This document shows, piece after piece, positions 19,629 to 20,815 of a stretch of DNA of 64,000 nt. Within the stretch, counting starts at the first letter, position 1. Every line of letters begins with the position of its first letter. Source of the DNA: Escherichia coli (GTDB taxonomy: Bacteria; Pseudomonadota; Gammaproteobacteria; Enterobacterales; Enterobacteriaceae); assembly GCF_013122565.1 (NCBI RefSeq), contig NZ_CP053258.1; one strand, written 5' to 3'. The notes under the pieces were generated by a model that was not told the origin of the DNA, did not search any database, and worked only from the letters and a program-made list of their open reading frames with translations. Made by a program: the position numbers and the translations under genes.

Positions 19629-20815
19629 CTATATTGCATTTAAAAGGTCGTAATCATACGTATAGTCCTCTCTGGTAAAATATTGCTTCTCTGAGTTATA
19701 TGCTTCATATGTGTTATATTTTACAACCTCAAAGCAATTGTCAGGAGAATTTTCGTCTTTCTCGAGTGTATTATCTGAAAGGAATTCCTCTGAGATAGAA
19801 TCCTCTATGTTTAAATCTGTATTGTAATTAATTTTTGGATCGATAAGATAAGCATTTTCTTTGACGCTTTCATAATCTTTAATGATTATATCGATGTAAT
19901 AATCTATTTTTTCTGATGAGAATCCTTTCATCTCTGGTAATTTAATTCTGTTCAAGTAATTGTTAATTTTCGATGAGCTTTTATATATTTCTTTTGTTAA
20001 TTCATTTTCTAATTGATCTGTTAGAGTTGCTCTTGGTATAGATTCTATAATTGCAAATCTCATAATTTTTAATTGTTCTTCGGTAATATCTCCAAGCTCA
20101 TTTAAACAACTTTCGACAAGCTTAATTTTTTCTTCAGAATACATATCGCAATGCTTGTTAGAACAGGCGTTATTTTTAGTAAATAATCCCAGGAGATTGT
20201 GGTGTTTTGTTTTGAACTAACGAAATTTACCTGAAACATGTTGGCATTAGTAAAATCTGTGTCATCCAATTTAAAAGGGTTTAAAATTGCATTGGCCATA
20301 TGTTTATCTGTAAAATTATAAAGTTCTAAATCGACATTCCGTAAGTCCAGAGAGGATAGATCAACTATACCTCCAGTCCCACAACTAAAAACTACGTTCA
20401 ACCTCCTGATTTCATTGTAAATATCTTTCAATGGGCAATTAACATTGATATTGCCTGTGGATATTTTCTGGTTCTTTAATGGTTCATTAATGGTAAGTTC
20501 ACAAGTATTGTCCGATCGTTGAATAATTTGGGCGTTATAACCTAAAAAATCCAGACGAAGAGACGAGTCATTATAAAGGATTACATTTTGTAAGTACGCT
20601 AATTCTTTTTGGAAATCACCAGTGATAATGCATTTTCCACCTGGTTGTAACGCGTTAAGTAAAGTGACCATTTCAATAGAGGTCTGTTTTAGTTTTTCTA
20701 TACCTGGTGCTAGTGCTTCGAGGTTATTTCCTGTTGGGCTTTCAGGAAGGTCATTCATTTTTCGACGGACTAAATCACTACTAATATCATTACCAATTGA
20801 TGAAACAGGGAGCAT
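19629..20815 (-). pseudogene. yhaC: Pentapeptide-repeat protein YhaC disrupted by a frameshift (237-aa and 171-aa ORFs in different frames; 1187-nt span)
   Basis: ORFs 20102-20815 and 19629-20144 overlap in different frames. The span from ATG 20815 to stop 19629 is 1187 nt (1 nt short of 396 codons). Low-GC gene with pentapeptide-like repeats (DLSSLDLRNVDLELYNF...). Confidence 0.55.

Follow-up and report, generated by a model that had tools for sequence, protein, structure and literature searches.

A one-base deletion in codon 223 of yhaC and a probable strain-specific pseudogene allele in Escherichia coli

Identity of the split gene and its locus

In the stretch of Escherichia coli DNA analyzed here (64,000 nucleotides of contig NZ_CP053258.1, hereafter the window), two overlapping open reading frames (ORFs) lie on the minus strand where intact strains carry the single gene yhaC, raising the question of whether they are two functional pieces, one gene read through by recoding, an intact gene misread in the assembly, or a gene truly broken by mutation. 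The upstream ORF (20102–20815, 237 aa) runs from an ATG at 20815–20813 to a TAA at 20104–20102, and the downstream ORF (19629–20144, 171 aa) ends at the native yhaC stop, the TAG at 19631–19629. The two overlap by 43 nt (20102–20144), and measured from the initial ATG through the final stop they cover a distance of 1187 nt, while intact yhaC measures 1188 nt in all of the references that we fetched. A preliminary description of this DNA had given the same lengths, overlap and distance, all of which agree with the list of ORFs, and had named the gene as yhaC, split by a frameshift that leaves it one base short of 395 codons plus stop, an assignment that the family model and alignments described below support.

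We compared the two products with NCBIfam NF007262 (‘YhaC family protein’), an equivalog model of 395 positions with a curated cutoff of 765 bits. The 237-aa product matches model positions 1–231 (E=7.7e-150, 499.2 bits) and the 171-aa product matches positions 225–395 (E=2e-102, 343.1 bits), significance levels at which the resemblance of both ORFs to YhaC is not a matter of chance. Each fragment alone scores under the cutoff, and restoring one A at the true site of the lesion gives a 395-aa protein that covers model positions 1–395 and passes the cutoff with 865.5 bits. These matches identify the window’s yhaC as a disrupted member of the YhaC family.

The window holds the aga genes, prlF-yhaV, garD, garPLRK, rnpB, yhaC, yhaB, tdcR and tdcABCDEFG, in a gene order that matches K-12 MG1655, O157:H7 and strain A11, and the split gene sits at the orthologous position, between yhaB and rnpB and near tdcR and the tdc operon. 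The conserved downstream neighbor rnpB, which encodes the RNase P RNA (18755–19131, plus strand; Rfam RF00010, 318.6 bits), fixes the identity of the locus. On the other side, yhaB (20840–21376, minus strand, 179 aa) is intact, ends 21 nt ahead of the yhaC start and is full length in a single frame with 99.4% identity to A11 YhaB. An AAGGA sequence resembling a Shine-Dalgarno site is still present upstream of the yhaC ATG. The garK-rnpB-yhaC-yhaB-tdcR arrangement is common to the window and K-12, whose yhaC (b3121, UniProt P11864) is 93% identical at the DNA level, but the window lacks one A at codon 223. The closest intact allele is that of the O157:H7 strain TR01, with 99.1% DNA identity.

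Several other features of the window are recorded here in their own right. Directly after rnpB stands a tandem array of 2.5 copies of a 113-bp unit (19109–19389, 94% matches), each unit carrying a GC-rich hairpin and then a T-run. The tdcR frame (21632–21976, minus strand) is open for 114 codons, which corresponds to the long form predicted by gene callers; within the protein collection the exact 114-aa product occurs only in SRR11451224, and the RefSeq-annotated 72-aa form is common. Relative to K-12 and A11, an insertion of about 7.9 kb lies between prlF and garD (4577–12496), encoding a DeoR/AgaR-like regulator, a ROK kinase, a Gfo/Idh/MocA oxidoreductase, a YdjC-type chitin-disaccharide deacetylase, a GH4 glycosidase and a chitobiose-type PTS IIC protein, with a IIB gene nearby. 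This insertion is covered in three of 5,426 complete E. coli genomes at about 95% identity, and a Logan contig from DRR843004 carries an identical IIC protein, although its DNA as a whole shares only 91% identity with the window. Between exuR and exuT lies a chaperone-usher fimbrial operon of the CS1/CFA-I class (42584–47689), with a chaperone, a CS1-type major subunit, a TcfC-like usher and a CfaE-like tip adhesin. Its chaperone, usher and adhesin are 77–84% identical to those of A11, the flanking genes are 99–100% identical, and the exact usher protein occurs in four contigs only.

Position, derived state and rarity of the lesion

The site of the frame switch can be bracketed by stop codons. 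The downstream frame is closed by a TAG at 20219–20217, 75 nt (25 codons) upstream of the ATG at 20144, and the upstream frame by the TAA at 20104–20102, so the switch is confined to 20105–20216. The preliminary description had drawn the same limits, and it had suggested alignment with intact yhaC alleles as a check. That alignment places the lesion inside the interval as a single gap column: one A is missing from the minus strand (a T on the plus strand) between 20150 and 20149, in the context GCATT[A]GCGAT, within codon Ser223 (AGC). In gene numbering the lesion falls at nt 666/667, and the only gap column is at nt 667. Intact alleles read GCATTAGCGAT (Ile222, Ser223, Asp224) where the window reads GCATTGCGAT; the pairwise alignment with TR01 shows the one gap (GCATT-GCGAT in the window), and in a five-allele alignment with K-12, two O157 alleles and the divergent MFDS1022581 allele the missing base is present in every allele but that of the window. 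The upstream ORF accordingly comprises native codons 1–222 (20815–20150) followed by 15 out-of-frame codons, AICILKKKLSLSKVV (20149–20105). In the downstream frame, homology to YhaC begins at 20149 (tblastn frame -3, query residues 224–395), and the start codon assigned to the 171-aa ORF, the ATG at 20144–20142, is native Met225. The restored sequence at the lesion reads ...WDYLLKITPVLTSISDMYSEEKIKLVES... and, with other limits, ...LLKITPVLTSISDMYSEEK...; the restored peptide is ...LLKITPVLTSISDMYSEE....

The extra A is present in all 23 of the other fetched yhaC alleles that span the site, namely K-12, the two O157 alleles, strain A11, a divergent allele of 77% identity and 18 more. When the site was searched with an 81-nt query spanning it, 3,734 complete E. 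coli genomes gave matches; identity never reached 99%, and the best value, 98.8%, corresponds to the one gap, so that the deletion was found in none of them. The preliminary description had held that its reading would fall if orthologues in other strains showed the same two-ORF organization; they are intact at this site, and the other splits that we found break elsewhere. Orthologues are thus single uninterrupted ORFs and the indel is derived in the window’s lineage, which is the pattern expected of a pseudogene.

Among roughly 15 billion proteins, the exact 237-aa and 171-aa products are recorded once, on an 8,861-bp Logan contig from the read set SRR11451224. Over 6,329 bp (window 19487–25815) this contig and the window agree at 100% identity, with the deletion present in both, and the contig carries identical calls for both fragments. 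Two more SRR11451224 contigs match the window at 100% along 4,685 and 5,558 bp, bringing the base-for-base match to 16.5 kb in three contigs. By these identities, the window strain and the source of SRR11451224 are the same strain or clone. Protein look-ups for further clonal relatives, with the usher, TdcC, YhaB, GarK, TdcR and PTS-IIC proteins, gave only SRR11451224 at 100%; two NCBI assemblies with the same usher protein were considered as clones and rejected, being 99.4–99.6% identical. The restored 395-aa protein, which would be the immediate intact ancestor allele, is not on record in the protein collection. Among everything examined, the lesion is unique to the window and SRR11451224.

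The wider background of the strain is also unusual. Over 25 kb (window 20000–44999) no complete E. coli genome exceeds about 96.5% identity, yet single segments come to 99% against different strains, namely one set for garK and its flanks and O157:H7 TR01 for yhaC. Judged by these identities, the strain seems to represent a rare, mosaic lineage that has no close relative among complete genomes.

Alternative accounts of the split frame

We put the probability that the window carries a strain-specific yhaC pseudogene allele, produced by a one-base deletion, at about 90%. One alternative keeps the frameshift but places it elsewhere. The preliminary description had proposed two homopolymers as slippage sites, an A5 run (20177–20173) and an A6 run (20131–20126), read as T5 and T6 on the plus strand. 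Both runs exist, both lie inside the doubly open interval, a base added at either restores a long ORF, and a different strain (L023) is missing 1 nt from an A5 run that lies beyond these in the downstream direction, at gene nt 745–749. Neither run is the lesion, however, as the window and every aligned intact allele agree in the length of both, the sole gap lies at gene nt 667, and the context of that gap is non-repetitive. The earlier proposal that an A added at the A5 run restores the true reading fails in the same way. It gives ...LLKNNACSNKHCDMYSEEK... and, at the lesion, ...WDYLLKNNACSNKHCDMYSEE...; the resulting peptide, ...LLKNNACSNKHCDMYSEE..., is wrong over nine residues, exchanging the conserved ITPVLTSIS, with the family-invariant Ser221 and Ile222, for NNACSNKHC, and it scores 839.4 bits against NF007262, 26 bits below the 865.5 bits obtained at the true site. 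Homopolymer slippage is thereby ruled out by the intact alleles for practical purposes. A different doubt is whether the base is missing from the DNA at all. Single-base indels are the commonest assembly error, and if yhaC were truly intact the gap would be a consensus error; suspicious splits do occur at this locus in public assemblies, one of which (L025) has yhaC interrupted by two 1-nt insertions and tdcB split and another of which (L024) has tdcB and tdcA split along with yhaC, and a single further source, possibly drawing on the same reads, has the exact fragments on record. Against this, the site is neither a homopolymer nor a Dam or Dcm motif, and an independent assembler working on the SRR11451224 reads arrived at the same sequence, 100% identical over the 16.5 kb. 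Should the window assembly have been built from SRR11451224, the two assemblies would share their reads and be independent in software only. The SRR11451224 contigs break beside the 113-bp tandem array (19109–19389), as short-read k-mer assemblies do, which suggests that these are Illumina data, and deletions outside homopolymers are rare errors in Illumina data. The preliminary description had held that raw reads with an extra base restoring the frame would overturn its reading; the Logan assembly of these reads, possibly the same ones, keeps the deletion. The neighborhood speaks against general indel noise as well: when 46 annotated A11 proteins were mapped on the window (about 55 kb), 44 were full length in one frame, the gene for a DUF805 protein was absent, and only yhaC switched frame, from -1 to -3, so that the 44 other genes found in the comparison are all free of frameshifts. 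The DUF805 gene, which stands beside yhaH in A11 (AOY64_RS03210), has no counterpart in the window, where the corresponding gap between yhaJ and yhaH lies around 36070–36110. Given the A in 23 alleles, the absence of the deletion from 3,734 genomes, the contigs that reproduce it and the 44 of 46 unbroken neighbors, an assembly error, which we consider improbable, is much less likely than a genuine deletion that is derived and specific to this strain.

A genuine deletion could still leave a working arrangement, if -1 frameshifting by the ribosome, or slippage during transcription, joined the two ORFs within their 43-nt overlap or if the gene had undergone fission. In its layout the locus resembles genes with programmed -1 frameshifting, such as dnaX and the orfAB genes of the IS3 family, which likewise have overlapping 0 and -1 ORFs with a short A-run in the overlap; here an A6 run lies inside the overlap, the downstream ORF begins at native Met225, two codons past the lesion, and the lesion separates an N-terminal half that is beta-rich and pentapeptide-like from a C-terminal half predicted to be helical, a division that comes from a low-confidence model. 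Unlike dnaX and the IS3-family orfAB genes, however, the split yhaC has no two-ORF arrangement among orthologues, no in-frame heptamer and no stimulatory structure, and the resemblance is superficial. Orthologues numbering in the thousands keep these A-runs within one uninterrupted ORF of 395 codons, so no two-ORF organization is conserved. No X XXY YYZ slippery heptamer occurs in the zero frame of gene nt 600–711, the sole AAAAAAT in that stretch sitting in the wrong register, six A’s are in general too few for efficient transcriptional slippage, and the overlap shows no stimulatory RNA structure (minimum free energy -15.5 kcal/mol, z=0.26 against shuffled sequences). Programmed frameshifting and transcriptional slippage were rejected on these grounds. 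Separate translation of the 171-aa ORF also seems unlikely from its sequence, since the 20 nt before the ATG at 20144, GTTCTAACAAGCATTGCGAT, hold no Shine-Dalgarno site and match AGGAGG at three of six positions at best; the upstream stop, 43 nt past the internal ATG, is in addition poor geometry for coupling by termination and reinitiation. A scan of 19400–22200 for promoters and terminators gave counts not above those of shuffled sequence. We regard a functional division or recoding of yhaC as very improbable, more so than an error in the assembly.

yhaC as an orphan gene and its other loss alleles

Having placed the lesion, we asked what kind of gene it interrupts. No Pfam-A family matches intact YhaC or either fragment at E≤0.01, PADLOC reports nothing for YhaC or YhaB, and sequence matches to YhaC in the PDB all have E>0.1, the weak ones being pentapeptide-repeat proteins at residues 152–201 and a GpsB/DivIVA-like stretch at residues 295–322. 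In an exhaustive phmmer search of 1.84 billion cluster representatives we recovered the protein’s own family, fragments of it and two weak repeat-type hits at residues 150–229; the most distant family member was a 389-aa variant of 65% identity, and the rest of YhaC had no relatives outside Escherichia and Shigella among these representatives. A word-seeded search of 5.8 billion proteins likewise returned E. coli and Shigella as the only named sources. Residues from about 150 to 229 weakly resemble pentapeptide-repeat proteins of the PF00805 clan, such as Nostoc Np275/Np276 (PDB 2J8K; 2j8k_A, E=0.18), and match P0140 in six stretches at E=1.3e-5, but membership in the pentapeptide-repeat family is not supported, the hits being weak and no profile match significant. 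From these searches, YhaC appears to be an orphan restricted to Escherichia and Shigella. An AlphaFold2 model built on a 25-sequence alignment was unusable (mean pLDDT 35, pTM 0.24). Secondary structure, predicted at low confidence, is beta-rich or repeat-like to about residue 200 and helical at residues 228–322, and the lesion at residue 223 may fall between two modules.

The yhaB-yhaC segment has a GC content of 31–38%, against about 50–55% for the gar genes on the rnpB side; at yhaC itself the value is 31–35%, with about 50% in the flanks. The gene is among the H-NS-bound ‘promoter islands’ of E. coli (PMC3661553). At least 80% of the region is kept in 4,314 of 5,426 complete genomes, and it is mostly missing in about 20%. 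ST131-type genomes retain only short yhaC remnants, annotated as pseudogenes, and a remnant pattern of gene nt 270–332 plus 1145–1188 recurs in four of the loci compared (L011–L014). Protein clusters hold N-terminal fragments that end near residue 179 (165 contigs), C-terminal fragments that start at Met173 (a 649-member cluster) and C-terminal frameshift variants, and one assembly (GCA_900449715.1) has lost 1 nt from another A5 run, at gene nt 745–749. In a further genome (OU356913.1, GCA_910738255.1; 3062–5540), homology to yhaC ends at gene nt 683, which indicates a rearrangement or an insertion inside the gene; past that point lie type III secretion genes (Bac_export_2/EscU-like, InvH-like, a GerE regulator and PrgH-like). 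At another locus (L021), prophage genes stand in place of tdcA beside tdcR. A Glu134Stop in yhaC has been reported in a laboratory-evolved K-12 production strain (PMC7907822). Some of the other yhaC splits, found in assemblies with several broken genes, may be artifacts.

These other E. coli losses of yhaC or yhaB (the ST131-type deletion, truncations near residues 173–179 and C-terminal frameshifts) have intact neighbors, as in the window, but their breakpoints and mechanisms are unlike those of the window lesion. As natural loss alleles occur in several backgrounds with intact neighbors, yhaC is dispensable and repeatedly lost. Its alleles differ by up to 7%, and by 23% for the divergent type, while flanking proteins are 99–100% identical, a pattern that fits a fast-evolving, dispensable accessory gene. 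Our search of the literature found no papers linking yhaC with pseudogene status.

The course of events that we propose is short. Recently in the ancestry of the strain, codon Ser223 (AGC), which stands in non-repetitive sequence, would have lost one A. Translation from the normal yhaC start would then yield 222 native residues and 15 aberrant ones before stopping at the TAA at 20104–20102, and the final 172 native codons, which make up the C-terminal half predicted to be helical, would be left in the -1 frame without a ribosome-binding site of their own. Full-length YhaC would be lost, with at most a truncated N-terminal polypeptide being made. Such a loss would be tolerated because yhaC, an AT-rich, H-NS-bound orphan, is dispensable and is often deleted or broken in other lineages. 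We infer that no functional product remains and that the change is selectively neutral, although the N-terminal 222 residues possibly keep some residual function.

A less conservative reading is that the yhaB-yhaC island is under conflicting selection and that the frameshift is one of many adaptive losses of a factor for surface, phage or host interaction, possibly leaving behind an N-terminal repeat module that still functions. This idea rests on the 77–99% DNA identity among alleles, set against 98–100% for flanking genes, on the repeated losses in unrelated lineages and on a published signal of positive selection, with yhaC one of the strongest hits when wastewater E. coli were scanned (PMC9110714), and we think it unlikely. 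We favor the plainer account of an ordinary strain-specific pseudogene, already known in kind and involving no new biological mechanism. Both ORFs should accordingly be annotated as one yhaC pseudogene with a frameshift at codon 223, not as two hypothetical proteins, and in this case the lesion was at none of the obvious homopolymer candidates. Beyond annotation a single allele has little import, adding one data point on the pattern of yhaC loss. For the locus as a whole, with its AT-rich, H-NS-bound orphan of unusually divergent and often-lost alleles, a population-genetic look may be worthwhile.
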